A stretch of DNA of 64,000 nt from Candidatus Binataceae bacterium (GCA_052146355.1 JBKQNE010000049.1:20031-84030), one strand, 5' to 3'; positions 6,999 through 61,180 are shown, numbered from the stretch's first letter. Numbers and translations: made by a program. The notes: generated by a model from the sequence alone, not told the origin.

Positions 6999-7475
6999 CA
7001 ATTTCCCTCCTGCGGACCCATCAGGCGTCGCGGCTGCTCTTTGTCACGAGCAGGATTTGCCCGGACGCCGCGTGCCTGACCAATCGGCCAGTCGGGCGCA
7101 TTGTAGCCCGCAAACGTGGCTTTGGAAATAGTCTCGTAACGCGCCGGCGGGTCTTTTTTGAGACCGCGACTGGAGTCATGCTCTGCACATGGCGACCGTG
7201 CGCAAACCGCACCGGGATTTGACGCTGATCCTGATACTGATCGTCGCCCTGATCGACGGGATCCTGATAGCCATCGTGAGGGTGCGGTCCATACAAGACA
7301 TGGGCCTCGACCTCAACGTACGTCCACCGCATCAGGCGGTGCAGCGGTCCACGCAGCCTTAGGGCCTTGCTCTTGACAAGCTCGGCGCCGCGCCGGAATT
7401 TGAGCGCAGGTCGTTCGTTTTACAACCCATCATCAAGCGCGCGGAGACATCTCAGCTCCGCGTGACGAGGAAACC

Positions 7476-19165: not shown

Positions 19166-19281
19166 GGCGCGGATGCGGCGCGGTGCCGGCGCGCGGGTAA
19201 CTTGACCGACCGGCACGTGCGCGCAATTTTGCTAGCATCGCCGGGGCCGCTCAAGTACTTGCCGCAGGAAGTGCAGACCGC

Positions 19282-31722: not shown

Positions 31723-32609
31723 AGCTTGCGCTCCACTACGAAAGTCGCGACCGCGCGCAACGGATCGGCGCGCTCGTCGAAATCCGCGAGCGCGCGATGG
31801 GCAGTGCGCTCGAGTTCTCGCGCAAATTCGCGCGAGCGTGCCGCGCCCATCAAAGTTGGAAAAGTCGCCTTGCCCGCGGCTTCGTCCTTGCCGGTCCGTT
31901 TGCCCATCTGCTCGGTGGTCGCTTCGACATCGAGGAGGTCATCGATAACCTGGAAAGCCAACCCCAGCGCGCGCGCGTACTCGTCCAAAGACGAAAGCTG
32001 AGCGGCCGAACCGCCGCCGAGTCTGGCGCCGCCGACGATCGACGCGCGAAACAATGCGCCGGTTTTCTTGCTGTGCAGATGCTTCAATTCGTCGAGCGAC
32101 AGCGTCAGACCCTCGCTCTGAAGATCGATCACCTGTCCGCCGACCATTCCGCATGAGCCGGCGGCGCGCGCCAGCTCCGCGACCGTCTCGAGCACGATCG
32201 CCGCAGGCACGCCGTCGGAGGCGGAACGCGCCAGCACGTTGAATGCGTCGGTCAGCAGGCCGTCGCCTGAAAGCGTGGCCATCGCTTCGCCGTAGACCTT
32301 GTGATTGGACGGACGGCCGTGCCGGAGATCGTCGTCATCCATGCACGGCAAGTCGTCGTGAATGAGCGAATAGTTGTGCACCATCTCAACCGCGCACGCG
32401 AAGCCCATCGCGCGCTCGTGCGCTCCGCCCACCGCCTCGCACGACGCGAGCGCCAGGATAGGCCGCAGGCGCTTGCCGCCGCCGAGCAGGCTGTAACGCA
32501 TCGCCTCGTACAGACGAGCGTCGGCGCCGGAAGGTTCCGCGACGACCTTCGACAGCGCGCGCTCGACGAGCGCGGCTCGTTCTTTCAAATAGCGATCGAG
32601 TTGAAACAT
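31719..32609 (-). CDS. ispA: polyprenyl (farnesyl) diphosphate synthase
   Basis: First Asp-rich motif [14 protein letters not shown] and second [10 protein letters not shown] chose the ATG at 32609 (MFQLDRYL...) over the Gly/Pro-rich extension from the ATG at 32711. Confidence 0.85.
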
Positions 32610-32715
32610 GTCTCTAACGGACCCACAAATCCGGCCGCCGGCGCCGGGCATGAATCGCCCGGAAAGCGCGGCCGCACTGCCGCCCGGAGGCGGCCCGCCC
32701 ACATCAACCATCGGC

Positions 32716-33720
32716 TCAGGACATATAATGACGAACCATTCGCCACGAATCCTTTAAATTCTTGCCGAACTCCATCGCGACCGTGCCTTCGAATCCCGAG
32801 TGCAACTTGCAGTCACGGCAGCGGATGTCCTGCTTGGTGCGGTAGAACTCCCAATCCGTCGCCTCGTGCAACTGCTTGAACGTCTGGTAGTGACCGTTGG
32901 TGATGAGGTAACACGGCCCCTTCCATCCGCGCGGATTGCGCGTGACGGTCGTCCACGGGCTGCACGTAAGGTCGCGTTCACCGACCAGGTAGTCGAGGTA
33001 AATCGGGGTATTGATGATCTTGTAGTCGTCGGCGAGCTTGCGGACCTTCTTGAACTTGTACGGCATCTCTTCTTTCTTGAGATAGAGATCGTCGTTGTTC
33101 AGCACCTGGTAATGGTAGCCGGGCGACAGCAGCATGCCGTCCACGCCGAGACTGCCCAGCAGCTTGACGAGTTCTTCCAGCTCTTCGCCGGTCGTCTCGC
33201 GAAAGACCGTAGTGTTGGTCTGCACGCGATAGCCCTTGTCCTTGAGCATCCGGATCATCTTCATGATGATGTCGAAATGACCCTGGCGATCGACGACGCG
33301 GTCGTTAGTTTCGCGCATGCCGTCGATATGGAGATTGAAGCTCAGGTAGGGGCTCGGCGGGACCTGCTTGACGAAGCGCTCGAGCAGGATCGCGTTGGTG
33401 CAGATCATGACGTGGCGGCCCTGCTCTTCGATAAGCCGCGTGGTGAGCGGCGCGATATGCTTGTACATCAGCGGCTCGCCGCCGCAGATAGAGACGATCG
33501 GCGCGCCGCACTCCTGCGCCGATGCGACCGCTTCATCGAGCGGCATCATGTCGCGAATCGTTTCCTTGTACTCGACGATTCGTCCGCATCCGACGCACGC
33601 CAGGTTGCATGCGTGCAAAGGCTCGAGCATCAGCACGAGCGGAAAATATTTCTCACCGGCCCGCTTCTTCCTGCTCATGTAGCGGCCCAGGTCGATCATC
33701 TGCTTAAGCGGTACCCGCAT
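32716..33720 (-). CDS. hpnH: adenosylhopane synthase, radical SAM protein HpnH
   Basis: CNLACVGC radical SAM cluster motif near the N-terminus, 334 aa, and location at the head of the shc/hpnCDE operon. Confidence 0.8.
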   Translation of the reverse strand: MRVPLKQMIDLGRYMSRKKRAGEKYFPLVLMLEPLHACNLACVGCGRIVEYKETIRDMMPLDEAVASAQECGAPIVSICGGEPLMYKHIAPLTTRLIEEQGRHVMICTNAILLERFVKQVPPSPYLSFNLHIDGMRETNDRVVDRQGHFDIIMKMIRMLKDKGYRVQTNTTVFRETTGEELEELVKLLGSLGVDGMLLSPGYHYQVLNNDDLYLKKEEMPYKFKKVRKLADDYKIINTPIYLDYLVGERDLTCSPWTTVTRNPRGWKGPCYLITNGHYQTFKQLHEATDWEFYRTKQDIRCRDCKLHSGFEGTVAMEFGKNLKDSWRMVRHYMS

Positions 33721-33753: not shown

Positions 33754-34413
33754 TCAGGCGACGGCTTTGCCGCCGTCGGATGGTGTTTGATTGCCGAACA
33801 GCCACTCGCTGGCCATCGCCACCGCGGCGATCGGATCCAACGGATTGTTGGCCACGAATAGATGCTCGATCAGGATGCCGTTGAGCGCCGACAGCAGAAA
33901 CCCCGCCGCCGCCTCGGGCGAGAACCGGCCTGTGCACAGCCCCTTCTGCTGGGCGCGCGCGATCAGCTCCACCAGCATCGCGCGGTAGCCTGAATAGAGC
34001 TTCAAAACCTGTTCGTTGAGCCCCTCCGAGAAATGCTGGTCGTGCAACATTTGCGCGAGAAAAAAGCGCACTGAACTAGCGTTATCGCGCACGAACAACA
34101 AATAGAACTCCACCAGCTTTTGAATCTGGGCGCGCTCGTCGAGGACGCCGGCTTCCTCGGCAAAGTCGATGAAATACGGTTCGAGCAGCCGGTTCAGAAC
34201 CGCCACGAAAAGCTCTTCCTTGGTCTTGAAGTGCCAGAAGATGAGCGCCTTGCTGACGTGCGCCTCTCGCGCAACCTCAGACATGGAAGTCTCGTGAAAG
34301 CCCCGATTCGCGAACAGATGCATCGCGGCTTTCAGAATCTCATCGCGGGAGTCCTGGGAACTGTGACTATCGGCGGAAACGGTGCGCGTCTCTTCTGGGG
34401 TACTCATTGACAT
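33754..34413 (-). CDS. TetR/AcrR family transcriptional regulator
   Basis: HTH block ILKAAMHLFANRGFHETSMSEVAREAHVSKALIFWHFKTKEELF. First gene of the co-directional hopanoid array. Confidence 0.85.
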   Translation of the reverse strand: MSMSTPEETRTVSADSHSSQDSRDEILKAAMHLFANRGFHETSMSEVAREAHVSKALIFWHFKTKEELFVAVLNRLLEPYFIDFAEEAGVLDERAQIQKLVEFYLLFVRDNASSVRFFLAQMLHDQHFSEGLNEQVLKLYSGYRAMLVELIARAQQKGLCTGRFSPEAAAGFLLSALNGILIEHLFVANNPLDPIAAVAMASEWLFGNQTPSDGGKAVA

Positions 34414-34452
34414 CAAATGTGACGGCCGTCGCTAACCTATCGGTCAATCGTA

Positions 34453-34546: not shown

Positions 34547-35569
34547 TCAGGATGCAATACTTATTTCAGCGCCTAGGCTTTTGGCAGATTCGCGCGCGGC
34601 GACGATGAGCGACAACGCATTTCGCGCTTCGTTGAGATTGGTTCGGGCGGTTGGGGAATCGATACCCTCGGAGATGGCGCGCTCGAACGCCGCTGCCATG
34701 CCAGCAAACCAGGTCGAATGGTACGAATCGTCGACGATGTCCTGCACGGACAGGTCGTGAGTCACGCCTGCCCCGTCAGTAAAGATGGCGCGATCGCCCT
34801 CAATTTCGAGCGTCCCGTTTTCGCCCGATATCGTTGCCGACGTCTTCCTGGCGGCGGCGCGCCAGGAGAGATGCGCCTGCGCGGCGCGGCCGGAGGAAAA
34901 CCTGACGCGGAGATCGGCGACCTCTTCGGTGCCGCCTGCTTCACCCGAGAGACTCGCCGAAATGGCGCCGGGAGCTTCATCGCCCATCAGCCATTGCATC
35001 AGGTAGAAGACGTGCCAGCCATGGTCGATAAGAATTCCTCCACCGGAATCACTGGCCGAGCGCCATGCGCCCCCCGCCCGACCCGTGCCGGCAGGCTCGG
35101 TACGCAGGCGGTCGAGCGAAAGAGAATTGACGGCACCGACCCGTCCATCATCGATGAGCTGACGCGCCATCGCATACGCGGGGGCATACTTCCAATTGTG
35201 CACGCACATCAGGATGCGCCCGTTGGTTCGCGCCAGGCCGGCAAGCTCGTCGAATTCCGCGAGCGAAAGACAAAGCGGCTTCTCGACCAGCACGTGGGCG
35301 CGCGCCTTCAATGCGAGACGCGCCGCCGTCGCATGATACGCGGGCGGACTCGCGATATCGACGAAGTCGAGCGCCTCACCATCGAGCATCAGCTCGAGGT
35401 CGTCGTAGACGCGGACGTTCTTGATTAGCCGAATCGCTTCGTGCCGACGCTCCGAAACGGGATCGTGAATGACGGAGATATTGATCCCGTCGCGGGTGCG
35501 CCATCCGGTCAGATGGGCTTTCGCGGCAACCTCGCCAAAGCCCGATATTGCGCCTCTCAATCGACCCAC
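34547..35569 (-). CDS. Gfo/Idh/MocA family oxidoreductase
   Basis: Rossmann N-terminus (RGAISGFGEVAAKAH), LVEKPL motif and C-terminal alpha/beta domain. The true start is probably GTG 35569 or TTG 35560, overlapping the upstream stop. The long Arg-rich 5' part of ORF 34547..36343 overlaps the LLM gene and is rejected. Confidence 0.75.
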   Translation of the reverse strand: MGRLRGAISGFGEVAAKAHLTGWRTRDGINISVIHDPVSERRHEAIRLIKNVRVYDDLELMLDGEALDFVDIASPPAYHATAARLALKARAHVLVEKPLCLSLAEFDELAGLARTNGRILMCVHNWKYAPAYAMARQLIDDGRVGAVNSLSLDRLRTEPAGTGRAGGAWRSASDSGGGILIDHGWHVFYLMQWLMGDEAPGAISASLSGEAGGTEEVADLRVRFSSGRAAQAHLSWRAAARKTSATISGENGTLEIEGDRAIFTDGAGVTHDLSVQDIVDDSYHSTWFAGMAAAFERAISEGIDSPTARTNLNEARNALSLIVAARESAKSLGAEISIAS

Positions 35570-36408
35570 GCCGCTGCGAGTTCCTCCAGCTCTGGTTCGT
35601 ACTTGTCGGGCGCGAGCGTCGGCGGGAAGAGGATCAGGCGATGGGCGCCCGCGGCGCGATAGGCCTCGACCGCGGCGCGAGGATCTTTGCCGCCCACCGG
35701 AGAGAAAATCGTAATCTCGAGTTTCGAGAAGTCGCGATTTGCTTCGTCGCAGAGCTGCCGCAACTTTGCGAGTTCCAACTTCAATTCTTCCGGCTTGAGC
35801 GCGATCGGCGCCCATCCGTCGCCGATGAGTGCAGTGTTGCGCAGCGCGCGGTCGCCGCCCGCGCCGATGTGGATGGGAGGATGAGGCTTCTGCGCGGGCT
35901 TGGGATTGCTGCGGACGGCAGGAAACTTGACGAATTCGCCCTCGAAGCTGGCTTCGTCGCGCGTCCACAGTTCTTTCATCGCGCGGATGTACTCGCGCGT
36001 CATCGGCCATCGCCGGCGAAAATCGACACCCAGGATTTCGCTCTCGTCGCGCAGCCATCCGGCACCGATTCCAAACAAGAACCGGCCGCCCGAATAGTGA
36101 TCGAGCGTCGCAACCTCCTTGGCGAGATTGAACGGATCGCGCTCCGGCACGAGGCATATTCCGGTGCCCAGCTTGATTCGATTGGTAGCGCCTGCGGCGA
36201 GCGCGAGGCCGACGAAGGGATCGATCATCTGCGAGTAAACAGGCGGAATCTTGCCGTCGGCCCGCGGAAACGAGGTCTTGGGACTTACCGGCATTATCAC
36301 GTGCTCGGGGAGCCAGAACGATTCGTATCCCAGCGCTTCGCACTTGCGCGCGACTGAAACGGGATGAGCAGTGTATGAGGCGATGAAAGCCAGCACTCCG
36401 ATCTTCAT
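35557..36408 (-). CDS. LLM-class (luciferase-like) F420-dependent oxidoreductase
   Basis: 283-aa ORF. The stretch KCEALGYESFWLPEH...GTGICLVPERDP...LFGIGAGW is typical of the F420-dependent LLM subfamily. Confidence 0.8.
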   Translation of the reverse strand: MKIGVLAFIASYTAHPVSVARKCEALGYESFWLPEHVIMPVSPKTSFPRADGKIPPVYSQMIDPFVGLALAAGATNRIKLGTGICLVPERDPFNLAKEVATLDHYSGGRFLFGIGAGWLRDESEILGVDFRRRWPMTREYIRAMKELWTRDEASFEGEFVKFPAVRSNPKPAQKPHPPIHIGAGGDRALRNTALIGDGWAPIALKPEELKLELAKLRQLCDEANRDFSKLEITIFSPVGGKDPRAAVEAYRAAGAHRLILFPPTLAPDKYEPELEELAAAWVD

Positions 36409-37290: not shown

Positions 37291-37767
37291 TTATTTCCAG
37301 CCGAAGAAGTCTTTTGCGTACACGAAGTTGGCGACGCCGGCTGCTTGCGCTGCTTTCTTGTCTACTTCCTGGTCGCCGATCATCGTGGAGTTTTCGAGAT
37401 CGACGCCGTAGATCTCGGCCAGGTCGGTGATCATCCCGCCGCGCGGCTTGCGGCAGTTGCATCCGTCGGCATCGTCATGCGGGCAGATTTGCCATCCGGT
37501 CAGAGTTTCACCGAGCTTATGGTCGAGCTCGACAATCGCGGCTTCGACCGCCTCCATCGTAAAGCGGCCGCGCTTGATCTTCGACTGATTGGTCACGATT
37601 AGAAACAAGTAATCGTGCAGCGGGCCCAGCTTCTCCGCTACGCCCGGCAGCAAATCGACCACGATCTTGCCGTTAGCATCGAGCGGGAGTTCCTGCGACT
37701 CATCGAGCCGCACGAGCGTGCCGCCAAGATCAAAGAATAGCGCCCGGTTTCCGTTCGGATTGGACAT
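37291..37767 (-). CDS. HAD-IIIA phosphatase, GmhB/histidinol-phosphatase-like
   Basis: Zn-finger insert CPHDDADGCNCRKP, motif III/IV GDQEVDKKAA. Motif I reads FFDLGGTL (DxG instead of DxD). Confidence 0.75.
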   Translation of the reverse strand: MSNPNGNRALFFDLGGTLVRLDESQELPLDANGKIVVDLLPGVAEKLGPLHDYLFLIVTNQSKIKRGRFTMEAVEAAIVELDHKLGETLTGWQICPHDDADGCNCRKPRGGMITDLAEIYGVDLENSTMIGDQEVDKKAAQAAGVANFVYAKDFFGWK

Positions 37768-37787: not shown

Positions 37788-39146
37788 TCAGGCCGCGCGC
37801 CAGTCGATATTGTCGCGCACGTAGCTGAATACTTCGTCCAGGATCGCGACGCCCGTGTCGGCCTGTTCTTCCGTAATCACCAGCGGCGGATTTATCCGGA
37901 CGCGCGGGAAGTAAGTCATCGTCACGATTCCGCGCTTGAGCGCTTCGAGGAAGATCTGCTCGGTGACTTTGCGGCTCAATGGCTCGCGGGTCTTGAGATC
38001 GCGCACCAGGTCGATGCCGATAAGCAGGCCCTTGCCGCGGACGTCGCCGATAAATTCGTATTTTTCCTTGAGCGCGTTCAGCCGATGGAGCATTTGTCCG
38101 CCGACCTTGCGCGAGTTTTCCACCAGCTTCTCGTCGCGAATCGTCTTGATCGTTTCCGCGACGGCGGTCGCCGCGAGCGGATTACCGCCGTAGCTCGATG
38201 ACGACGCGCTCGGCTTGCCGAACGGCTCGGCCTTGCCGAGCTCTTCGCTCATCAGCACGCCCGAAACCGGGAACCCCGATCCCATGCCTTTGCCGACGGT
38301 CACGATGTCGGGGCTGACGCCGGTGTGATCGACGCCCCACATTTTTCCGGTGCGGCCGAAGCCGGTGATCATCTCATCGGAAATCAGCAGCGCGTTCAGG
38401 TCCTTGGCCACGGACTTGATCGCCGGCAGCCAATCGTCGGGCGGAATGACGTTGCCCGCGGTTCCCTGCATCGGCTCCACCAGGATCGCCGCGACCTCGC
38501 CGGCGGAAGAATTCTTGATTTGATCGCGCGCGAAATCGACGCACAGCAGCCCGCACGACGGATGCTGCAGCTTGAAGGGGCATCGATAACAGTCTGCGTA
38601 CGGCACCTGGTAACGGCCGCCCGGCAGGGGACCATAGCCCTTCTTCGACTCGTCGCCGATCAGTCCGAGCACGCCGCCGGTCTTGCCGTGGAATCCGCCC
38701 CAGAAGCCCACCACTTCATGCTTCTTGGTGGCCGATCGCGCCAGGCGCAGCGCGGCTTCGACCGCTTCGGCCCCGCCGCTGAAAAGATGCGACCGGTTGA
38801 GGCCGCGCGGCGCGACTTCCGCGATCAGCTTGAATGCTTCCGCGCGTTCTTTGGTGGCAAACGTTCCTACGGTCAGGCGCCCCGCCTGTTTGGCGATCGC
38901 CTTGGTGACACGCGGATGGGCATGGCCGAGGCTCGCCACCGCGATGCCCGCATACAGGTCGATATAGGTGTTGCCGTCCGCGTCGGTCAGGGTGGCGCCT
39001 TCGCCGTGATCAAAAGCCACGCCGGCCAGCAACGAGACGCGCTGGCGCCCGGACGCGATATACTTCTGCTCTTCGTCGAAAATCTTGCGGGACTCGGGTC
39101 CGGGGACAGCGGTTTTAACAGAGGGCAGTTTTCCGTTCGATGCCAT
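37788..39146 (-). CDS. class-III (omega) PLP aminotransferase
   Basis: 452 aa with SGGAEAVEAALRLAR, DEMITGFGRTGKMW and the PLP-Lys block TVGKGMGSGFP. An HpnO-like role is possible from context only. Confidence 0.9.
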   Translation of the reverse strand: MASNGKLPSVKTAVPGPESRKIFDEEQKYIASGRQRVSLLAGVAFDHGEGATLTDADGNTYIDLYAGIAVASLGHAHPRVTKAIAKQAGRLTVGTFATKERAEAFKLIAEVAPRGLNRSHLFSGGAEAVEAALRLARSATKKHEVVGFWGGFHGKTGGVLGLIGDESKKGYGPLPGGRYQVPYADCYRCPFKLQHPSCGLLCVDFARDQIKNSSAGEVAAILVEPMQGTAGNVIPPDDWLPAIKSVAKDLNALLISDEMITGFGRTGKMWGVDHTGVSPDIVTVGKGMGSGFPVSGVLMSEELGKAEPFGKPSASSSSYGGNPLAATAVAETIKTIRDEKLVENSRKVGGQMLHRLNALKEKYEFIGDVRGKGLLIGIDLVRDLKTREPLSRKVTEQIFLEALKRGIVTMTYFPRVRINPPLVITEEQADTGVAILDEVFSYVRDNIDWRAA

Positions 39147-39187: not shown

Positions 39188-40009
39188 CTAGCGCGCGCGG
39201 GCAAGCAACGAAAGGCCCCTGCGCGCGATCGCGCGAGCCGCCTGGCCGCGCACCCTGCTGAAGCTGGGCCAATCGTTGAAATCGATGATCGCGAACCGGT
39301 CCTCGTTGATGACCGCGTCTCCGCCCCACGCCTCCAGCCCCAGCGCAGCCGATGCTTTCTGCGCGGCATCGGACAGCTCGCGCATCGCGATTTCGGGAAG
39401 TTCGCCGCTCTCGGGCAGCGCGGTGAAGTACGATCCGCCGCTGACGCCATAGAATTTGATCACACCGCCCGGATATTCCTGCTGGACGTATGCGTGCCGA
39501 ACGCCTCTGCGCGCGAGGCCGTTCAGTCTCGCCTCGATTTCCTTGCGTCCGATCGCGCGCTGGACGTCGTCCGCCCCAAGCGCATGCAGGTCGCCGCGCT
39601 TGACGAACACAGGCTGGTCGAGATCGACCGCGCCGAGCGCACGCTGGTCGAGTCGCTGATCGGTCCTGACCAGGGCGCCCACCGGAGTGGGAACGCCGGC
39701 GCGGCCGAGTCCGGGAGCCAGCAAATCGCGGTAGCAGTTGCGAATCGCCAGGGCCGAATTGATCGCCACCGCCCCGTTGCGCTCCACTTCGGCGAGCCTT
39801 CTGAGCGCGCCCTCGCTCTGGCACATCGCGAGCACCAGGTCGGCCTGGATTTCATGCCGATCGAGAAACTCGGTCGGGGACAAAGCTTCCGTCTCAACGC
39901 CTTCGCGCGCGAGTTCGGCCAGCGACGCGTCAAGAATCGCTGCGTCGGCTTCGACCTTGCCCGGCGAATATTCCGGTTCGCGGTAAATTCCGATTGCTCG
40001 ATAACTCAT
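39188..40009 (-). CDS. ATP-grasp domain protein
   Basis: 273 aa. The central VFVKRGD...GVIKFYGV and the C-terminal GGDAVINEDRFAIIDFNDWPSF resemble the ATP-grasp catalytic half. Substrate unknown. Confidence 0.55.
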   Translation of the reverse strand: MSYRAIGIYREPEYSPGKVEADAAILDASLAELAREGVETEALSPTEFLDRHEIQADLVLAMCQSEGALRRLAEVERNGAVAINSALAIRNCYRDLLAPGLGRAGVPTPVGALVRTDQRLDQRALGAVDLDQPVFVKRGDLHALGADDVQRAIGRKEIEARLNGLARRGVRHAYVQQEYPGGVIKFYGVSGGSYFTALPESGELPEIAMRELSDAAQKASAALGLEAWGGDAVINEDRFAIIDFNDWPSFSRVRGQAARAIARRGLSLLARAR

Positions 40010-40011
40010 TG

Positions 40012-40719
40012 TTAACCCACCACCATCCGGCGCGCGGCCTCGAGATCGGAGGCCTCGTCCACATCGATCGCGCCCGCAACTTCGACCGCACCCAGCCGAA
40101 TGTTTTCCTTAACGAGCATCTGCAGGAACGCACGCATCGCCGCGAGCTTCCGCCCCCGCGCGGCGGCGCTGAAACGAAAAATCTCCGTCGGCAGCCAATA
40201 CAATCCTGCCGTGACGAGGGAACTCTCGCGCTCTCCCAATGACGTAATCAACCCCGCTTCCGTTACTTCTGTGAAAAGCGGCTTGCGATCGCCGCGCCAT
40301 TTGGTAACCGCCAGCACGCCGTCGAAGTTCGCTTTTGAGGCGGCAAGTTCTGCCGCCTCCGCCACGAACCGGCGCAACTCGGTTTCCGGAACGATCGCGT
40401 CGACCGTCGCGAGCAGAAAATGGCCGGGGCGAAGCGACTCACCAAGCGTGAACAGCGACTCCATCGAACTCTCGGTGTCGCGTACGACTATTTGCAAAGC
40501 CGCCGGCATGGTAATGCCGCGCGCGAGGGCCGCGGTCTCCGAATTGATGACCGCCAGCACGCTCTCAGCACCCGCTGAGAGCATCGCCGTCGCCTGCCGC
40601 GCCAGCATCGGCTGCCCGCCGACCTCGACGAGCGGCTTGGGAATCGTCGCGCCGCCCGAAGCGCGCAGGCGATCGCCGCGGCCCGCGGCAATTATCGCGC
40701 CTTGAAATCCGGTCACCAT
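40012..40719 (-). CDS. sugar-/alcohol-phosphate nucleotidyltransferase (NTP_transferase fold)
   Basis: Intact AIIAAGRGDRL...PKPL signature (GxGxR...K). 235 aa. Only 2 nt separate it from the ATP-grasp gene, and it overlaps the upstream HAD gene by 7 nt. Confidence 0.8.
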   Translation of the reverse strand: MVTGFQGAIIAAGRGDRLRASGGATIPKPLVEVGGQPMLARQATAMLSAGAESVLAVINSETAALARGITMPAALQIVVRDTESSMESLFTLGESLRPGHFLLATVDAIVPETELRRFVAEAAELAASKANFDGVLAVTKWRGDRKPLFTEVTEAGLITSLGERESSLVTAGLYWLPTEIFRFSAAARGRKLAAMRAFLQMLVKENIRLGAVEVAGAIDVDEASDLEAARRMVVG

Positions 40720-41447
40720 TGCAGCCCCGCAACTTCGTTCAGCGAAGCGATAGTAAAATCCGCGCTCGATTCGGCGCCGGGTTCATCCGGATGCACCGAC
40801 GCACTCGAGCGGTACCAGACGGTTTTCAGGCCCAGGCGATGCGCCGGCGCGCAATCCTTGCCCAACGAATCGCCGATCATCGCCGCCTCGGACGGCTTCA
40901 CACGCAGCGCGCGCAAAGCAGTCTCGAAGATACCGGGCGCGGGCTTGAACACCCCCACTCGGCTGGAGTCAACGATCGAGTCGACCATTTTCTTCACGCC
41001 CGTTTCCGCAAGAATGCCTTCGAGGTTTCCATAAAAGTTGGAAACCACTCCGATTCGGAAATTCGCTTTCAAGTCCTTCAGCACCGGGCGATTCGCTTCA
41101 ATTCCTTTTCTGGTTGCCGTGACAAAGCCCGCCGTCACTTGTTCGACGATCCGATGCCGCGCCTTCGGATCGAGCGTGGCTAATCTGGTGCGGATGCGAT
41201 CCGGCCCTTGATGCGCCAAGAATTCCACCTGATTTCCCGTCAGAAATCGCACCAGATCCACCAACCCAAAGCGCTGAACCACTTTTCCCGCGCGATAACC
41301 CGCTTTCGTCGCATGGTCGAAGGCCGCATCAAGTTCAGCACGATCAAGCTCGACTCCGGCCGCGTGATACTGGATAAGAAATCGATCCAGCCAATGCAGC
41401 GGCCCATCGAGCGTGCCGCCGAAGTCGAAAAGCAGAGCCGATATCAT
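40713..41447 (-). CDS. HAD-IA family hydrolase
   Basis: Motif I LLFDFGGTL, motif II VVSN, motif III KP, motif IV GDSLGKD. First gene of the five-gene minus-strand operon. Confidence 0.8.
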   Translation of the reverse strand: MISALLFDFGGTLDGPLHWLDRFLIQYHAAGVELDRAELDAAFDHATKAGYRAGKVVQRFGLVDLVRFLTGNQVEFLAHQGPDRIRTRLATLDPKARHRIVEQVTAGFVTATRKGIEANRPVLKDLKANFRIGVVSNFYGNLEGILAETGVKKMVDSIVDSSRVGVFKPAPGIFETALRALRVKPSEAAMIGDSLGKDCAPAHRLGLKTVWYRSSASVHPDEPGAESSADFTIASLNEVAGLQW

Positions 41448-41539
41448 CTTCGCGAACCATGCAGTCTATCAGCACCGACGTGCAGCCTCCAGGGTGCAGC
41501 AAAAACCCCGCACCAACAGGGCTGTTTTCGGCCGATCAA

Positions 41540-41568
41540 TTGACACGGCAGCACTCGTACTCTAAATC
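41540..41568 (+). promoter_or_regulatory. candidate sigma-70 promoter for the plus-strand operon
   Basis: TTGACA - 17 nt - TAAATC in the 162-nt divergent intergenic region. A GGAGG lies about 10 nt before the TTG start at 41610. Confidence 0.3.
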
Positions 41569-41609
41569 CATCGCGCGAACCGCGTTCCATTTTCGGAGGC
41601 GTCTCAAGC

Positions 41610-42233
41610 TTGCAGCCCGGATTTCCTAAATCAATTCGCATAGTTGCGTACTTTTTTGCGTCATTGATTTTGATGCTGACCGTTATTCGTGTTGATGCGG
41701 GTACCGCCGATGAAAGTGCCACCGCGACCGTCCGCCAGCTCCTCGCCTCAATAGGCAAGCTGCGTACCACCACCGACGCAGCGCAGAAAAAGATGCCGAT
41801 CGGCTCCATAGATAATTCTCTTGCGATCGAGAAGCTCAGTAAGCAGGCACTTGGTGCGCAATGGAGCAAACTCGACGCTCCCGAGCGCGCTCATTTTGTC
41901 GCGCTAGTAAAGGAACTTCTGGAAAAAATCGCGTATCCGAATGCTGCCCAGTTCTTTGCGGATTTCAGCATCAAGATCGTTGGCGAGGATGCTTCCGGCG
42001 ATCAGCGCACCGTGCAGACGACCGTCACCCGCCCGGAGGGAGGCGCGGTATCGATCAACTACATCCTGGAGCGCATGAACCATCGATGGACCATCGTGGA
42101 TGTCATCCTCGATCGGCAGAGCCTCGCCGCCAGCATGACCACCCAGATTCAGGCGACCCTCAAGAGCAGCTCTTACCAGGACCTGGTCAAGCAGCTTGAA
42201 TCGCGGCTAACGCAGGCGACACCCCCGCATTAG
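41610..42233 (+). CDS. MlaC/Ttg2D-family lipid-binding periplasmic protein (HpnM-like)
   Basis: Signal peptide. The C-terminal block HRWTIVDVILDRQSLAASMTTQIQATL matches the MlaC pattern (W-K-I-Y-D-V-x-V-E-G-V-S-L-V-x-x-Y-R-x-Q-F type). Confidence 0.7.
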   Translation: MQPGFPKSIRIVAYFFASLILMLTVIRVDAGTADESATATVRQLLASIGKLRTTTDAAQKKMPIGSIDNSLAIEKLSKQALGAQWSKLDAPERAHFVALVKELLEKIAYPNAAQFFADFSIKIVGEDASGDQRTVQTTVTRPEGGAVSINYILERMNHRWTIVDVILDRQSLAASMTTQIQATLKSSSYQDLVKQLESRLTQATPPH

Positions 42234-42379
42234 AAGCCTGTGCCGACAAAATCCGCTATACACCGCCATACAGATGTAAGAGACCGCCGGGGGGCGGAAT
42301 CGTCACAGAAGAATCGCTGCACGAGCGCTCGATTAAAAAGAAGGTAGCCTTCTAGCCCCGAGGTTGCGGGCATGTTACC

Positions 42380-43636
42380 TTGACGCGGCACGATGGCCTG
42401 TTTAGGAAACTTGGTTTTAATACGACCTTGGCGATAGAAACCGCTCTAATCTCGGCGCCTTCGCGCGCCGACAACCGCATTTTCGGGCGGCCTTTGCTCG
42501 AACGGTTGATCCTTTCCTGCGAACGGGCGGGAGTTAAGCGCTTCTTCATCGCAGCGCCGGCCGAACGGCACTCCCAGGTAGCGTCCTCGCTCGGTGGCTT
42601 CCAGAGCCATCCTGAGATCAATCTGGTCGACAAGCTCGATTCCTCGATGGCGCGGCAAACCGATCTGGACCCGAGCGCGCCGTGCATTTCCTTCGCGGGC
42701 AATCTGGTTTTTTCCAGGATGCAACTGCGGCGCGTGCTCGACGACGCGGCTAATCATCCGACCAGCGTGCTGCGTTTTTCCAGCAGCGACCCGGACCACG
42801 GCGGCGAAATTACGACCGGTCCGATGCGCGATCTGCTCGAACAGGATACGCCTCGCACCGAGCCAGTCCGCCGGCCGACCGGAGAATTGCCGTTCGCGCT
42901 CAATGGACGCCCGGAAGATCGGAAGGAAGCCGAGATAAGGCTGGCGCGTTCGCTGCGTTTGGAAACGGCATCGAAGGACGCGCTGATGGCGCGGCTGCTC
43001 GATCGCAAGATCTCATGGCGGCTCAGCCTCAGGCTGGCACGCACGAAGATAACCCCCAATCAGGTAACGATCGCCAATACGGTACTCGGCTTTGTCGCGG
43101 CATGGATGTTTGCGATTCCGAGCTACGGCGTCCGCCTGATCGCATCGCTGCTGTTTCTGGCTTCGATCACGATCGACGGAATCGACGGTGAGTTGGCGCG
43201 GCTCCAGATGAGCGAGACGGATTGGGGCGGCAAGCTCGACGTGGCGACGGACAATATCGTCCACGTCGCGATCTTCGTCGGAATCTTCGTAGGGGCTTAT
43301 CGGGCCAGCGCCGATTCCACATTCCTGTGGTTATTGCCCGTTCAATTGGTTGGTTTCGCGCTAAGCGCGTTGTCGATCTTCATGGCGTTTCGTTTTCGAG
43401 GCGCACAGGCCCAGAAATGGATTGATCAGGTGGACCGCTGGAGCGGACGTGATTTCGCATACCTGCTGGTGGGTTTCGCGCTGATTAACCGCTTGCAGTG
43501 GTTTTGTTGGGCGACGGCGTTTGGTACCTATGTATTCGCATTGGTGTTGACGTGGCTCACGGCTCGGCATCGGGCTGTGGAGACACCGGATGAGCCGCTT
43601 CGCGAGAATCGGAGCGTTGCGGCGGAGGAAGCATGA
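42380..43636 (+). CDS. fusion protein: degenerate nucleotidyltransferase-like N-domain + CDP-alcohol phosphotransferase membrane domain
   Basis: The C-terminal half carries DGELARLQMSETDWGGKLDVATD (DG-x2-AR-x8-G-x3-D-x3-D) within about 6 TM segments. The N-terminal roughly 200 aa looks NTP_transferase-like but lacks GxGxR (ISAPSRADNRIFGRPLLERL). The layout recalls IPCT/DIPPS fusions. TTG start uncertain. Confidence 0.8.
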   Translation: MTRHDGLFRKLGFNTTLAIETALISAPSRADNRIFGRPLLERLILSCERAGVKRFFIAAPAERHSQVASSLGGFQSHPEINLVDKLDSSMARQTDLDPSAPCISFAGNLVFSRMQLRRVLDDAANHPTSVLRFSSSDPDHGGEITTGPMRDLLEQDTPRTEPVRRPTGELPFALNGRPEDRKEAEIRLARSLRLETASKDALMARLLDRKISWRLSLRLARTKITPNQVTIANTVLGFVAAWMFAIPSYGVRLIASLLFLASITIDGIDGELARLQMSETDWGGKLDVATDNIVHVAIFVGIFVGAYRASADSTFLWLLPVQLVGFALSALSIFMAFRFRGAQAQKWIDQVDRWSGRDFAYLLVGFALINRLQWFCWATAFGTYVFALVLTWLTARHRAVETPDEPLRENRSVAAEEA

Positions 43637-44961
43637 ACAAGAAGCCCAGGATCCTGTTGGTCCAGCCGACGACCGTGCATCTCGACGGCACTCCGCATAA
43701 GACCCGGTGGCGTCTCATCATGGGATTGATGATCCCGCTGTTGGCCGGCCTCACGCCCGATGACTACGACGTCACGCTTTGCGACGAGCGTCTTGAAGAC
43801 ATCAATTTCGACGGGGGATGGGATCTCGTTGGAATGACCACGACCATCGGCGCATCGCTGCGCGCCTATCAGCTCGGCGATGAATTTCGCCGCCGCGGCA
43901 TTCCGGTCGTATTCGGCGGTTTTCATGCGACGCTGCAAACCGACGAAGCCCTTGAGCACTCCGACGCGGTCGTGCAGGGCGAGGCCGACCTGGTATGGCC
44001 CGAGCTGCTGCAGGATTGGCGTGACGGCAAGCTGAAGCAAATCTACAAGTCGACCAAGGTGCACGATCTCAAGAAGCTGCCGCGTCCGCGCCACGAGCTG
44101 CTGAAGCTCAACCGCTATCTGTTCAAGGCGGTGCCGGTGCAGGCCAGCCGCGGATGCCCCTATCGCTGTTCGTTCTGCGAAATTCCGGTCTTCTACGAGG
44201 GTTCGTATCGCACGCGCCCGATCGAAGACATCGTCGAGGAGATGAAGGAAGTCATCAAGGTCACCGGCTTTCGCCGCTTCCAGTTCATCGACGATCAGAT
44301 CACCGGCAAGCACAAGTTCGCGCGCGAGCTGTTTAAGGCGCTCGAACCGCTCAATATCCGCTTCTCATGCTTGTGGACGATCAACTCGAACCATGACGAT
44401 GAGCTGCTCGAACTGGCGGCCAAGGCGGGAATCTTCCACGTCAATATCGGCGTGGAATCGATCAGCCAGGAAAGCCTGCTGTCGATGAACAAGATTCAGA
44501 ACCACGCCAATCAGTACAAGAAGCTGCTCAAGAAGATGGAGCACTACGGCATCTACTATTCGCTGAACTTCCTGTTCGGTCTCGAGGAAGACCGGCCCGG
44601 CATTTTCGACGAGACGATGAAGTTCCTGCATGAAGTCCGCGCTCCCGAGGCGTTCTTCAACACCGTCACGCCGCGGCGGGGCACGCCGATGCGCACGCAG
44701 CTCGAAAACGAAGGCCGCGTGATCATCCCGGATGCGGATCTCTACACCAATAACTTCCGCTGTATGTTCGTACCCAAGAACATGTCGCCGCAGCAGGTTG
44801 AAGAAGGCGTGTGGAAGTGCACCAAGGAATTCTACTCGTTCAAGTCAATGTTCAAGCGGCTGCTGTTGCCACCGAACAAATTCACCTGGCAGGGCCTGAC
44901 TGAAAACATGCTGTTCTGGTACGGAGCAAAGCGGCAGATCGATCCGGTAGATTACTATTAA
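43633..44961 (+). CDS. B12-binding domain radical SAM protein (DUF4070-type C-terminus)
   Basis: N-terminal cobalamin-binding domain (ILLVQP..., VVFGGFHAT), CPYRCSFC cluster motif. The ATG overlaps the upstream stop (ATGA) and is preceded by GGAGGAAG. Confidence 0.9.
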   Translation: MNKKPRILLVQPTTVHLDGTPHKTRWRLIMGLMIPLLAGLTPDDYDVTLCDERLEDINFDGGWDLVGMTTTIGASLRAYQLGDEFRRRGIPVVFGGFHATLQTDEALEHSDAVVQGEADLVWPELLQDWRDGKLKQIYKSTKVHDLKKLPRPRHELLKLNRYLFKAVPVQASRGCPYRCSFCEIPVFYEGSYRTRPIEDIVEEMKEVIKVTGFRRFQFIDDQITGKHKFARELFKALEPLNIRFSCLWTINSNHDDELLELAAKAGIFHVNIGVESISQESLLSMNKIQNHANQYKKLLKKMEHYGIYYSLNFLFGLEEDRPGIFDETMKFLHEVRAPEAFFNTVTPRRGTPMRTQLENEGRVIIPDADLYTNNFRCMFVPKNMSPQQVEEGVWKCTKEFYSFKSMFKRLLLPPNKFTWQGLTENMLFWYGAKRQIDPVDYY

Positions 44962-44984: not shown

Positions 44985-45022
44985 AAAACGGCCGCGGAAG
45001 CCAGAGCTTCCGCGGCCGTTTT
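44985..45022. terminator. bidirectional intrinsic terminator
   Basis: aaaacggccgcggaagc-caga-gcttccgcggccgtttt forms a perfect 17-bp stem including the flanking A/T tracts. It begins 24 nt after the radical SAM stop. Confidence 0.75.
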
Positions 45023-45280: not shown

Positions 45281-46132
45281 TCACGGCGTGAGCACGGTGT
45301 TATCGATCAGGCGCGTCTTGCCTACGCGGGCTGCGATTGCGAGCAGCACCGGGTGCTCGATCGATGAGACTCGCTCCAGCGTGGTCGCATCCACCGCTTC
45401 CACGTATTCGATTTCCACGCCTGGCGTCCGTTTGAGCACCCGCTTTGCCACGTATGCCAGCTCTTCGGCGCAGCACGCGCTCTTGCGGTAGTGGTCGCGC
45501 GCGGCACGCAGCGCGAGACTCAGCGCCAGCGCGCGCTGGCGTTCGTCGGGCGACAGATAGGCGTTGCGCGAACTCATCGCGAGTCCGTCGCTTTCGCGCA
45601 CGATCGGCACCGGCACGACCTCCAGGTCGAAGTTCAGGTCGGTGACCATCCGCTGGATCGCGCGCAGTTGCTGGAAATCCTTCTCGCCGAAAATCGCGAA
45701 ATGCGGCTTTACGATATTGAACAACTTGGCGACCACCGTCGTGACGCCGCGAAAATGCCCGGGCCGATGCGGCCCGCACAGCCCCGCGCTCACCTGCGTC
45801 GCCTCGACCCAGGTCTGCGAATCCGGCGCATACATGGCCGACGGATCCGGCGCGAAGACGATATCCACCGGCACCGATTCCATCAGCGCGCAATCGCGCT
45901 CGAAGTTGCGCGGATATCTCGCGAAATCTTCGTTGGGCGCGAACTGGGTCGGATTGACGAAGATCGATGTGACCAACACGCCCGCGCGCCGGCGCCCTTC
46001 GCGCATCAGCGTCAGATGGCCTTCGTGCAGGAAGTCCATCGTCGGCACAAATGCGATCTGCTCGCCGGACCGGCGCGCGCTCTCTGACCAGCGCTGCATC
46101 TCGTCGGGAGTGCGGATTGTATCCATCGTCAA
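45281..46132 (-). CDS. panC: pantoate--beta-alanine ligase
   Basis: The stretch FVPTMDFLHEGHLTLMR matches the HxGH nucleotidyltransferase motif of PanC. 283 aa. The start overlaps the panB stop. Confidence 0.9.
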   Translation of the reverse strand: MTMDTIRTPDEMQRWSESARRSGEQIAFVPTMDFLHEGHLTLMREGRRRAGVLVTSIFVNPTQFAPNEDFARYPRNFERDCALMESVPVDIVFAPDPSAMYAPDSQTWVEATQVSAGLCGPHRPGHFRGVTTVVAKLFNIVKPHFAIFGEKDFQQLRAIQRMVTDLNFDLEVVPVPIVRESDGLAMSSRNAYLSPDERQRALALSLALRAARDHYRKSACCAEELAYVAKRVLKRTPGVEIEYVEAVDATTLERVSSIEHPVLLAIAARVGKTRLIDNTVLTP

Positions 46133-46962
46133 TTCCCCTTTGCTTCCGCGTAGCAGTGCTCAGGTGCGGGAAAGGCCCGTTCGCGGACTTCGCGCACGTA
46201 GCATTCGGCGGCCGCGGATGCCTCGTGCCAGAGATTTGCGAATGGCTTGGCGAAACGCGGCTTGAACGACTCGCTGAGGCCGAGCATGTCGTGCATCACG
46301 AGCACCTGGCCGTCACAGTCGGCGCCCGCGCCGATTCCGATCGTCGGAATACTCACCCGCCCGGTGATCTCGCGTCCGAGCGAGGGAGGCACGCCTTCGA
46401 TCACGATCGCGAAGGCGCCGGCCGCCTCGATCGCAATCGCGTCTTCAATCAGCCGCTCGCGGCATCCGGGCCGCCGTCCCGGCTTGCGCCCCTGCACGCG
46501 ATTTCCGCCCATCCGATGGATCGATTGCGGCGTCAGTCCGATATGCCCCATCACGGGGATGTCGACTTCGGCGATCCGGCGCACGGTCTCGGCGACCGCG
46601 ATACCGCCCTCGAGTTTGACCGCTTCGGCACCCGCTTCCTTGATGAAGCGGCCGGCGTTCCGCAGCGCATCTTCGGCGCTCACCTGGTAGGAGAGAAACG
46701 GCATATCGGCGATGACCAGAGCGCGCCGGCGCGCGCGGACCACGGCGCGGGTGTGGTAAACGACGTCATCGACCGTCACGGCGAGCGTGTTCTCCTCGCC
46801 ACGCACTGCGGTCGCAAGACTGTCGCCGACGAGCATGAGATCGATGCCGGCCTGATCGAAGATGCGCGCGAATGGAAAGTCGTACGCGGTCAGCATCGTG
46901 ATTGGCCGCCGCTCCGCCTTCATTTTCGCGAGGTCGGGGACGCGAACTTTTTCCTGACTCAT
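46129..46962 (-). CDS. panB: 3-methyl-2-oxobutanoate hydroxymethyltransferase
   Basis: Canonical PanB blocks ITMLTAYDFPFARIFDQAGIDLMLVGDSL and GHIGLTPQS. I chose the ATG at 46962, with GGAG 7 nt upstream, over the TTG at 46974. Confidence 0.9.
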   Translation of the reverse strand: MSQEKVRVPDLAKMKAERRPITMLTAYDFPFARIFDQAGIDLMLVGDSLATAVRGEENTLAVTVDDVVYHTRAVVRARRRALVIADMPFLSYQVSAEDALRNAGRFIKEAGAEAVKLEGGIAVAETVRRIAEVDIPVMGHIGLTPQSIHRMGGNRVQGRKPGRRPGCRERLIEDAIAIEAAGAFAIVIEGVPPSLGREITGRVSIPTIGIGAGADCDGQVLVMHDMLGLSESFKPRFAKPFANLWHEASAAAECYVREVRERAFPAPEHCYAEAKGN

Positions 46963-47319
46963 CGAATACTCCAAAAAAACAGCGAGGCCGCCGTAACACC
47001 GGCAACCCCGCAGGCAGAGTACTCTTTGAGGGAGCGCTCAAGTCCCGTTTTGGAGTCCCGGTCCGACTTGCGGATCCAGGCGCGAGCCCAAGCTGCGTAT
47101 TCAAGCGGCGTCCGCAGGCGACGCCTATTTCTTCAAACCGCCTCGCCGGACGCATCGCGTCTCGACGGGCTCAACATCTCCACTAGTACAGAAAGCGAAG
47201 CCGGGTAAAGGGCCGCGCGCGCGGAGTCAACGCAACATCGATCGAGTCATCGGTTGCCCTCACGCCCGGATTCGGCTACCCAAATCTGTGCAGGAAAATT
47301 TCTTACACCTGGACGTGAT

Positions 47320-51386: not shown

Positions 51387-52157
51387 TTAGCGGCGATTGC
51401 GCTCGAAGATCAATCGCAGACCCTTCAGGGTCAGAAATTCGTCCACTTCTTCTATGGTCTCTGACTCCGGCGCGATCAAGTCCGCAAGCCCCCCGGTTGC
51501 GATAACCCGCGCGCGCTCGCCGCGCTCCTTGCGGATGCGATGCACGAGACCATCGACCAGCGCGCTGTATCCGAAAATCAGCCCGGACTGGATAGAGGCG
51601 ATCGTCGTCCTGCCCACCGCCTCGCGCGGACGGACCAGCTCGACCCGGTAGAGCTTGGCCGCGCGGGCGATGAGCGCATCCATCGAGACGCCCAGCCCCG
51701 GCGCGATCGCGCCGCCGGCGTATTCGCCGCGCCCCGTCACATAATCAAAGGTGGTCGCGGTACCGAAATCGACCACGATGCACGCGCTCGAATAGCGCTC
51801 GTAGGCTGCCACCGCGTCGACGATCCGGTCGGCGCCGACCTCTTTGGGATTCTCGTACAAAATCGGCATCCCGGTCTTGATGCCCGGTCCGACCATCAAC
51901 GGCGCGCAGTGGAAGTAGCGCTCCGCAAGCTGCTCCATCGATTGATTCAGCGGAGGAACCACGCAGGCGATTATCACGCCCTCGGGCTTGAACCCGGGCT
52001 CGATTCCCGCCGCGACAAATAGCGTGTTGAGCATCGCGCCGTGCTCATCGGTGGTCCGCTCGGGAACGGTTTGGATACGCCAATGATGCGTCAGCGTCTC
52101 ACCCTCATAGATTCCGATGACGGTGTGGCTGTTTCCGACGTCGAGCGTGATGAGCAT
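51387..52157 (-). CDS. coaX: type III pantothenate kinase
   Basis: MLITLDVGNSHTVIG N-terminus, GADRIVDAVAA and DFGTATT blocks of CoaX. Confidence 0.9.
   Translation of the reverse strand: MLITLDVGNSHTVIGIYEGETLTHHWRIQTVPERTTDEHGAMLNTLFVAAGIEPGFKPEGVIIACVVPPLNQSMEQLAERYFHCAPLMVGPGIKTGMPILYENPKEVGADRIVDAVAAYERYSSACIVVDFGTATTFDYVTGRGEYAGGAIAPGLGVSMDALIARAAKLYRVELVRPREAVGRTTIASIQSGLIFGYSALVDGLVHRIRKERGERARVIATGGLADLIAPESETIEEVDEFLTLKGLRLIFERNRR

Positions 52158-59902: not shown

Positions 59903-61180
<1,278 letters not shown>

Follow-up and report, generated by a model that had tools for sequence, protein, structure and literature searches.

A conserved seven-gene module of Candidatus Binataceae that pairs a CDP-alcohol phosphotransferase with a B12-type radical SAM enzyme

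Introduction

Which compound is made by a membrane-bound CDP-alcohol phosphotransferase (CDP-AP) whose gene overlaps that of a B12-type radical S-adenosylmethionine (SAM) enzyme (rSAM), and do the two enzymes act in the same pathway? The question is raised by a stretch of 64,000 nucleotides from Candidatus Binataceae bacterium (GCA_052146355.1 JBKQNE010000049.1:20031-84030), from here on called the window, which has a GC content of about 61% and whose closest relatives are Candidatus Binataceae genomes. The Binataceae are abundant, uncultured bacteria of soil and peat, and we know of no lipid or solute of this family that has been characterized. In an earlier note, made from the sequence alone, three plus-strand genes, for a MlaC/Ttg2D-type lipid-binding protein, a CDP-AP fused to a nucleotidyltransferase (NTase) domain and a cobalamin-dependent rSAM, were interpreted as a module for the synthesis or modification of a polar lipid, to which a divergent operon could contribute the alcohol moiety.

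Results

The unit that is conserved at this locus is a module of seven genes. The CDP-AP gene (42380-43636) and the rSAM gene (43633-44961) on the plus strand face an operon of five minus-strand genes, which occupies 41447 to 37291, its genes overlapping or lying no more than 41 nt apart, and which encodes, in the order of transcription, a HAD-IA phosphatase (40713-41447), a soluble NTase (40012-40719), an ATP-grasp enzyme (39188-40009), a class-III pyridoxal phosphate (PLP) enzyme (37788-39146) and a HAD-IIIA phosphatase (37291-37767). A scan of one genome per species yielded 132 related loci, 80 of which were kept; all of these are labelled Binataceae-type except two labelled Acidiferrales. 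The presence of genes was scored by tblastn in 82 loci, and the completeness of the operon in the 62 loci whose upstream flank was available over the full 10 kb. In every one of the 82 loci the CDP-AP gene has the rSAM gene as its neighbor on the same strand, about 72 of 80 junctions measure −7 to +61 nt, and 58 of the 62 loci carry the complete set of divergent genes (HAD-IA gene in 74/82, NTase gene in 73/82). In one locus (L047) the CDP-AP/rSAM pair stands beside a P450 gene, without the five-gene operon. Median identities to the window are 91% for the rSAM, 78% for the class-III PLP enzyme, 67% for the ATP-grasp enzyme, 55% for the NTase and 54% each for the CDP-AP and the HAD phosphatase, to be compared with 85% for HpnH of the neighboring hopanoid cluster. 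The module is real and strongly conserved, and in this analysis it was found only in Binataceae genomes; among the matches listed for homologues of the CDP-AP and of the ATP-grasp enzyme, Binataceae sequences filled the ranks. Co-conservation of the operon with the pair fits the proposal that the operon is the source of the alcohol moiety.

The triad which the earlier note had regarded as the unit does not survive the comparison of genomes. The MlaC gene (41610-42233, plus strand) was detected in just 12 of the 82 loci, which span 34-65% identity, and in most of the others the gap between the HAD and CDP-AP genes is too short to hold it; the triad is therefore ruled out as the conserved unit, and part of that note's proposal falls with it. 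Like the genes for the GFO/IDH/MocA-like oxidoreductase (GFO) and the luciferase-like monooxygenase (LLM) described below, the MlaC gene is a variable accessory of the module. The assignment of its product to the periplasmic MlaC/Ttg2D lipid-binding family stands: Pfam MlaC (PF05494) scores 71.4 bits (cut-off 26), and the N-terminus reads by inspection as a signal peptide, with a hydrophobic leader ending in VDA; the gene has a Shine-Dalgarno site, GGAGG, 10 nt 5' of a TTG start. HpnM, which belongs to the same family, was rejected as its identity (TIGR03481, 50.4 bits at a cut-off of 160.1), and by these scores the protein is a member of the MlaC family and not the HpnM equivalog.

What had been said on the layout of the plus-strand genes proved correct. 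The three open reading frames are present, with the domains called for them, and the ATG of the rSAM gene overlaps the stop codon of the CDP-AP gene (ATGA) behind GGAGGAAG, which confirms in the sequence the translational coupling that had been claimed. The strong bidirectional terminator predicted after the three genes was found at 44985-45022 as an intrinsic terminator composed of a perfect 17-nt inverted repeat with A and T runs on either side. Between the HAD-IA gene and the MlaC gene lies the divergent intergenic (promoter) region (41448-41609), in which no sigma-70 consensus site was found; a search for riboswitches or other RNAs near the module genes found none. Just 3' of the terminator there is a 49-nt inverted repeat (45029-45077/45213-45261), 96% complementary and enclosing 135 nt, which resembles a miniature inverted-repeat transposable element (MITE) or a repetitive extragenic palindromic (REP) element and whose core sequence is found nowhere else in the window.

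The protein encoded at 42380-43636 belongs to the CDP-alcohol phosphotransferase family. Pfam CDP-OH_P_transf (PF01066) covers aa 224-377 with 45.5 bits (cut-off 22), and the signature D1xxD2G1xxAR...G2xxxD3xxxD4 is present as DGIDGELARLQMSETDWGGKLDVATD at 43175, the sole such match in the window. Since most homologues are 385-400 aa long, an alternative TTG at 42428 may be the true start. In the AlphaFold model (pLDDT 72) a beta/alpha N-domain (aa 20-150), taken to be cytoplasmic, is followed by a juxtamembrane helix and by six transmembrane (TM) helices, with none extra. In Foldseek the entire model could be aligned with IPCT-DIPPS (4mnd), the top match of that kind, and with AF2299 (4o6m) at E values of about 1e-10, and the N-domain aligns weakly with TarI/IspD cytidylyltransferases; as modelled, the protein has the cytidylyltransferase-like cytosolic N-domain and the six TM helices of the AF2299/DIPPS type.

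Sequence comparison with the PDB gave the same nearest relative. AF2299 from Archaeoglobus fulgidus (4o6m/4o6n/4q7c), which uses CDP-glycerol, was first with the single sequence (66.7 bits) and with the family profile (84.4 bits), followed in the latter by DIPPS (45 bits), the phosphatidylinositol-phosphate (PIP) synthases (25-30 bits) and PSS/CPT1 (about 14 bits). The Binataceae enzyme shares the juxtamembrane motif DRKISWRxS with AF2299 and DIPPS (RKxSxRxS in the comparison with AF2299), and with AF2299 also the architecture and the signature motif. The similarity to AF2299 is, however, confined to the stretch from the juxtamembrane helix to TM4, the N-domains being without detectable sequence similarity; AF2299 is archaeal, and the structural paper (PMC4634129) mentions no rSAM, ATP-grasp enzyme or aminotransferase as its partner. 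The model of the IPCT/DIPPS enzymes of di-myo-inositol phosphate (DIP) synthesis (NF041135) gives 72.9 bits at a cut-off of 580 and aligns only with aa 184-383, the TM half, which places the protein outside this family. An inositol-1-phosphate synthase was not found among the annotated open reading frames of the window.

The N-domain gave no match in Pfam and no sequence match in the PDB even at an E value of 10, and it has AAPSRxxN where NTases carry the GxGxR loop. It is therefore NTase-like in fold only, and the active NTase is the product of the separate gene. Of the NTase::CDP-AP fusion described in the earlier note the perfect CDP-AP motif and the NTase-like fold stand, but the fused domain lacks the catalytic glycine loop.

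Neither AF2299 nor DIPPS acts on lipids; AF2299 holds CDP-glycerol in a hydrophilic pocket, and six-TM CDP-APs take soluble acceptors, whereas enzymes with lipid acceptors have 3-4 extra TM helices (PMC4634129). Because the Binataceae enzyme has six TM helices and no extra ones, a soluble acceptor can be argued for. Two arginines in the TM4-6 pocket have been proposed to bind the phosphate of a phosphorylated acceptor (Clarke et al., PMC4634129); the TM4-6 region of the Binataceae family has three arginines, R308, R353 and R357, that do not vary in the alignment and that fit such an acceptor. The separate, intact NTase and the lack of additional C-terminal TM helices are indirect support for a soluble CDP-alcohol donor together with a soluble acceptor. 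Homology thus does not favor the lipid reading of the earlier note: the nearest relatives are non-lipid enzymes, and the architecture is that with six TM helices.

The rSAM has a radical SAM core (Pfam Radical_SAM, 67.8 bits) with the cluster motif RGCPYRCSFCE (CX3CX2C), in which C175, C179 and C182 do not vary among 95 relatives. Pfam B12-binding scores 28.2 bits, under its cut-off of 32.1; a GG-x-H motif (G95, G96, H98) is conserved among the relatives, and the N-terminus matches several B12-rSAM models of NCBIfam, all sub-threshold. By its similarity to B12-rSAM families the enzyme probably uses cobalamin. The designation as a cobalamin-dependent radical SAM enzyme is thus firm for the radical SAM half and probable for the B12 half.

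No gene of the neighborhood is better conserved within Binataceae than that of the rSAM, with 86-96% identity across 80 loci, and in an exhaustive search of representatives of 50%-identity clusters all Binataceae rSAMs fell into one cluster. Two fragments come next with about 50% identity; beyond these it falls to about 39-41%. Of the 94 nearest representatives none reaches a curated family (best E value 1e-39), and the position of the enzyme relative to characterized clades, which the earlier note had wished to see checked, is by family scores outside all of them. It was tried and rejected as HpnJ (79.9 bits, cut-off 577.6), HpnR (53.1, cut-off 650), BchE (100.8, cut-off 481), the ladderane enzyme (77.9, cut-off 360) and PhpK (84.9, cut-off 600), and it came nowhere near the cut-offs of ApyD or MgmA. 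In the PDB the sequences that match best are MgmA (9ccb) and AprD4, both of them locally. With the lipid-modifying rSAMs (HpnJ, HpnP/HpnR, Cds, GrsA/B, ladderane) it shares the layout of a probable N-terminal B12-type Rossmann domain, the CX3CX2C core and a DUF4070-like tail, but its scores for HpnJ, HpnR and the ladderane enzyme lie far under the cut-offs, and it is only 20-25% identical to the HpnR of the window. We therefore refer to it as a B12-type (class B-like) rSAM of an uncharacterized clade.

In the divergent operon, the HAD-IA phosphatase matches Pfam Hydrolase/HAD_2. The NTase is of the sugar- or alcohol-phosphate type, with the motif AAGRGDRLR...PKPL and 45 bits to Pfam NTP_transf_3; MurU is the nearest PDB sequence, and the match to IPCT is weak. 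For the ATP-grasp enzyme (273 aa) no Pfam family scores above its cut-off. Its AlphaFold model (pLDDT 78) matches D-Ala-D-Ala ligases, RimK and LysX in Foldseek with E values down to 6e-13, and its homologues carry the JGI label RimK-type ATP-grasp; it is best described as Ddl/RimK/LysX-like. An ITPK-type kinase was rejected as an alternative, Pfam giving an E value of only 0.089 and the top Foldseek matches being ligases. The class-III PLP enzyme (Pfam Aminotran_3, 332 bits) is an omega-aminotransferase or a racemase of the same fold, the nearest PDB entries being an archaeal GABA-AT-like protein and class-III-fold racemases. The HAD-IIIA phosphatase (TIGR01656, 86.9 bits at a cut-off of 84.15) resembles GmhB and histidinol-phosphatase. 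In locus L094 a gamma-glutamylcyclotransferase-like gene (GGACT/AIG2; 12755-13099) directly follows the HAD-IIIA gene, and together with the ATP-grasp ligase it hints at gamma-glutamyl-amine chemistry.

Two further minus-strand genes are frequent neighbors. The LLM (35557-36408; Pfam Bac_luciferase, 195 bits) is present in 42 of 62 loci and the GFO, which is related to sugar/inositol dehydrogenases (34547-35569), in 31 of 62. A 598-aa open reading frame (34547-36343, minus strand) is an over-extension that covers the GFO gene and, in another frame, the LLM gene; the Pfam hits of the GFO are at aa 264-588 of the long frame, and the gene calls in related contigs are 340-346 aa long.

Upstream of the module the window contains a complete hopanoid cluster (5478-33720), all of it on the minus strand. 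It encodes the C-3 methylase HpnR (5478-7001, 860 bits), HpnK (18305-19216), HpnA (23219-24334), HpnE (24226-25602), HpnC (25621-26535), HpnD (26516-27439), Dxr (27450-28619), SHC (28635-30638), a zinc-type alcohol dehydrogenase (Zn-ADH; 30661-31722), a polyprenyl synthase (31719-32711) and HpnH (32716-33720), and is followed by a TetR gene (33754-34416, minus strand). HpnK usually works together with HpnI and HpnJ. These two, HpnG and HpnN were not found among the annotated open reading frames of the window. Ca. Binatus has the Zn-ADH gene at the same place, between the genes of SHC and of the polyprenyl synthase (L091, 18414-19481; L093, 19787-20840). The reductase converting ribosylhopane to bacteriohopanetetrol is still to be established (PMC12583986), and the Zn-ADH is a candidate for it.

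Elsewhere in the window there are genes for a haloalkane dehalogenase (3576-4457, plus strand, 434 bits), a PPi-dependent phosphofructokinase (59903-61180, plus strand, 589 bits) and, on the minus strand, PanC (45281-46132), PanB (46129-46974) and a type III pantothenate kinase (51387-52157); panC and panB are the usual genes downstream of the module.

Discussion

We propose, with a probability of roughly 40%, that the module encodes a CDP-alcohol pathway like those of DIP and diglycerol phosphate (DGP) synthesis, the product of which is a soluble or exported amino-polyol phosphodiester tailored by the rSAM. In this pathway the class-III PLP enzyme, with the HAD-IIIA phosphatase and often with the neighboring GFO dehydrogenase, would make an amino-polyol or amino-sugar phosphate, which the ATP-grasp ligase may N-acylate. 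The separate NTase, with its motif intact, would, as expected from its family, activate an alcohol phosphate with CTP to CDP-X. The six-TM enzyme, a CDP-AP by family, would then move X-phosphate onto a second soluble alcohol (Y), which is probably phosphorylated, with the release of CMP; its degenerate NTase-like N-domain would have a structural or substrate-docking rather than a catalytic role. A HAD phosphatase would take off the terminal phosphate, as in the conversion of DIPP to DIP or of PGP to PG. Finally, the co-translated B12-type rSAM would carry out one radical step on CDP-X or on the product, most probably a C-methylation, and the end product would be a phosphodiester-linked amino-polyol.

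The combination of a GFO, an aminotransferase and a HAD phosphatase recalls kanosamine synthesis. The succession of NTase, CDP-AP and dephosphorylation by a HAD enzyme mirrors DIP and DGP synthesis and is well supported by the family assignments and the co-conservation of the genes. As in the IPCT/DIPPS system, an NTase would provide the CDP-alcohol, the CDP-AP would couple it to an alcohol phosphate and a phosphatase would finish the product; the Binataceae differ in that the fused domain is without GxGxR, the working NTase is separate and an ATP-grasp enzyme, a PLP enzyme and an rSAM are added. For the radical step there is a precedent in fosfomycin synthesis, where the NTase Fom1 cytidylylates an alcohol-type intermediate and the B12-dependent rSAM Fom3 then C-methylates the cytidylylated species. 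The difference is the phosphonate chemistry of fosfomycin, which comes from phosphoenolpyruvate (PEP) mutase; neither PEP mutase nor a CDP-AP is used alike in the two systems. Methylation is favored for the Binataceae rSAM because most characterized members of the B12-rSAM superfamily are methyltransferases (PMC12931638).

Several points weigh against this proposal. The identities of X and Y are no more than guesses. It is mainly in (hyper)thermophiles that soluble phosphodiester solutes are known, and the Binataceae metagenome-assembled genomes used here come from soil and peat samples; moreover, we know of no precedent for a B12-rSAM step in the synthesis of a solute. Part of the context points to lipids: the hpn cluster adjoins the module in 26 or more of the 62 loci, in two loci the next gene after the module rSAM is HpnR-like, and a MlaC-like gene has been inserted into the unit in 12 loci of varied divergence. 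There is also the disparity between the rSAM and its CDP-AP partner in median identity (91% versus 54%), and since the closest relatives of the rSAM outside the family have no CDP-AP gene within 10 kb (see below), the two enzymes may not share a substrate. In sum, a soluble product is suggested by the ranking of the homologues, by an NTase dedicated to the module and by the architecture with six TM helices, and a lipid by the MlaC insertions, the HpnR-like neighbors and the hopanoid cluster. We lean slightly towards a soluble or exported product over a membrane lipid, a choice that is not settled.

The first alternative is a new phospholipid head group. The CDP-AP would work as a PIP or PGP synthase does, on CDP-diacylglycerol (CDP-DAG) supplied by the housekeeping CdsA and on a novel amino-polyol phosphate for which the divergent operon would be responsible; a HAD phosphatase would dephosphorylate the product, the rSAM would modify the head group on the lipid and the MlaC-like protein would shuttle it to the outer membrane. 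The PIP synthases (PIPS/PgsA1; 5d91, 6h53) are the next-closest relatives (29 bits) and, like the Binataceae enzyme, have six TM helices; their soluble phosphorylated acceptor is held by TM4-6 arginines, and dephosphorylation follows, a scheme which the HAD phosphatases of the module suit. Cds and HpnJ are precedents for rSAMs acting on lipid head groups (PMC13459092), and a gene of the MlaC family does occur within the unit, in loci as different as those mentioned above. The similarity of the PIP synthases to the Binataceae CDP-AP is, however, much weaker than that of AF2299, they are without an N-terminal domain, and they bind their lipid donor CDP-DAG via a hydrophobic groove; the NTase-like N-domain and the juxtamembrane motif typify the soluble-donor enzymes AF2299 and DIPPS, not PIPS. 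A CDP-DAG donor needs no dedicated soluble NTase, yet the NTase gene is kept in 73 of 82 loci, and most loci are without MlaC. For these reasons we regard a phospholipid product as doubtful.

Does the rSAM belong to the pathway at all? It could have a role of its own, for example the methylation of a common metabolite or macromolecule, and merely be co-transcribed with the CDP-AP, which with the divergent operon would then form a six-gene pathway without a radical step. Such independence would agree with the rSAM being the best conserved gene of its neighborhood, ahead even of HpnH, and with what was found outside the Binataceae. Through the two fragments of about 50% identity a sister clade was reached in Desulfobaccales, which shares the C-terminal ...IDPVDYY, and in the 57 loci of this clade no homologue of the CDP-AP, the NTase, the ATP-grasp enzyme, the aminotransferase or the HAD phosphatases was found within 10 kb, the CDP-AP motif being absent in every frame. 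The tight coupling of rSAM and CDP-AP, on which the earlier note drew, was thus not found within 10 kb in the closest rSAM clade outside the family. There is a different conserved association in the Desulfobaccales (L096-L149, e.g., L114, 9344-12202): after the rSAM gene comes the homocysteine-biosynthesis gene HcyBio (PF01837), in 50 of 57 loci, and before it a MurI-like gene, while in some loci IleRS, LspA, Lgt and KdsA are also near. More distant relatives in Verrucomicrobia (39% identity) have only a HAD gene and hydrogenase genes beside them, and those in Lachnospiraceae (35% identity) occur as five tandem B12-rSAM paralogues; in neither was a CDP-AP gene found. In the Lachnospiraceae loci (L087-L090, 2700-9300) it is the last of the five paralogues that is 35% identical to the rSAM of the window, and the arrangement looks like a multi-methylation cluster. 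Against an independent rSAM stand the adjacency in 82 of 82 loci, on the same strand and with short or overlapping junctions despite many rearrangements on both sides, and the locus L047, which keeps the pair even without the five-gene operon; furthermore, a CDP-AP of the Desulfobaccales could be encoded elsewhere in the genome. We consider an rSAM unconnected with the pathway unlikely.

The hopanoid cluster suggests a third alternative, that the module adds a phosphodiester-linked polar group to the side chain of a bacteriohopanepolyol, with the class-III enzyme as an HpnO-like aminotransferase and the rSAM tailoring the resulting "phospho-hopanoid". HpnO is indeed a class-III aminotransferase and hard to tell from its relatives (PMC12583986). 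In the window HpnR, HpnK, HpnA, HpnE, HpnC, HpnD, SHC and HpnH are encoded directly upstream, so that the module rSAM lies next to a cluster that includes a true HpnR; the order SHC...HpnH-TetR-GFO-LLM-module is preserved in Ca. Binatus, and it is HpnH or TetR that is found in the flank of the at least 26 loci mentioned. Immediately downstream of the module rSAM, two Binataceae species have a gene for an HpnR-like B12-rSAM (L021, 11475-12995; L027, from about 8165) that is 66% identical to the HpnR of the window. In a control count of 51 loci, however, 33 had the functionally unrelated panC gene no farther than 10 kb downstream, against 22 with HpnH/TetR. Because panC is linked at least as often, the adjacency of the hopanoid genes may be inherited synteny; the hopanoid link thus holds as regards the position of the cluster next to the module, but the neighborhood of hpnH is no better kept than that of panC. 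Locus L094 has all seven module genes with no hopanoid genes nearby, and L047 has the pair likewise without hpn neighbors. The six-TM architecture speaks against a bulky lipid acceptor, the HpnJ, HpnR and HpnM models score far under their cut-offs, and a literature search on phosphorylated-hopanoid terms, together with a survey of alphaproteobacterial biohopanoids (PMC12583986), turned up no phosphate-bearing hopanoid. We judge a hopanoid product of this kind to be quite improbable.

Very improbable is a first phosphate-containing hopanoid made by another route, in which ribosylhopane-1-phosphate, from HpnG-type phosphorolysis of adenosylhopane, would be converted by the MurU-like NTase to CDP-ribosylhopane, which the six-TM CDP-AP, as PIP synthase does with CDP-DAG, would couple to a soluble amino-polyol phosphate provided by the aminotransferase, the ATP-grasp enzyme and the GFO; a HAD enzyme would then remove the phosphate, the head group would be tailored by the B12-rSAM, and the MlaC-like protein would transport the result outward. 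Such a scheme would nevertheless reconcile an architecture made for soluble acceptors and an NTase dedicated to the module with the hopanoid surroundings.

Returning to the soluble or exported phosphodiester that we prefer, the module is a variant of the CDP-alcohol phosphotransferase pathway rather than a separate kind of system, and it has no match in the literature searched. No paper was found there on a CDP-AP together with an rSAM, nor on Binatia together with radical SAM, and a 2026 review of lipid-modifying rSAMs describes no enzyme paired with a CDP-AP (PMC13459092). Of the lipid module as first conceived, the domain calls, the coupling, the terminator and the link to the divergent operon remain, whereas the triad as a unit and a catalytic N-domain have to be given up and the lipid reading is not favored by homology.

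Significance

CDP-APs of the AF2299/DIPPS type are linked to the osmolytes of thermophiles. In the structural papers they are represented by Archaeoglobus enzymes (PMC4634129). In the Binataceae an enzyme of this type is fixed in a mesophilic bacterial family and tied to a highly conserved B12-type rSAM and to enzymes that install amino groups. Each of the readings, with a soluble compound, a phosphorylated hopanoid or a phospholipid head group as the outcome, implies a new phosphodiester metabolite. The B12-radical SAM superfamily has more than 220,000 members, most of them unassigned, and the module would give a first function to one of its branches. A hopanoid-linked product, if true, would matter for biomarker geochemistry.

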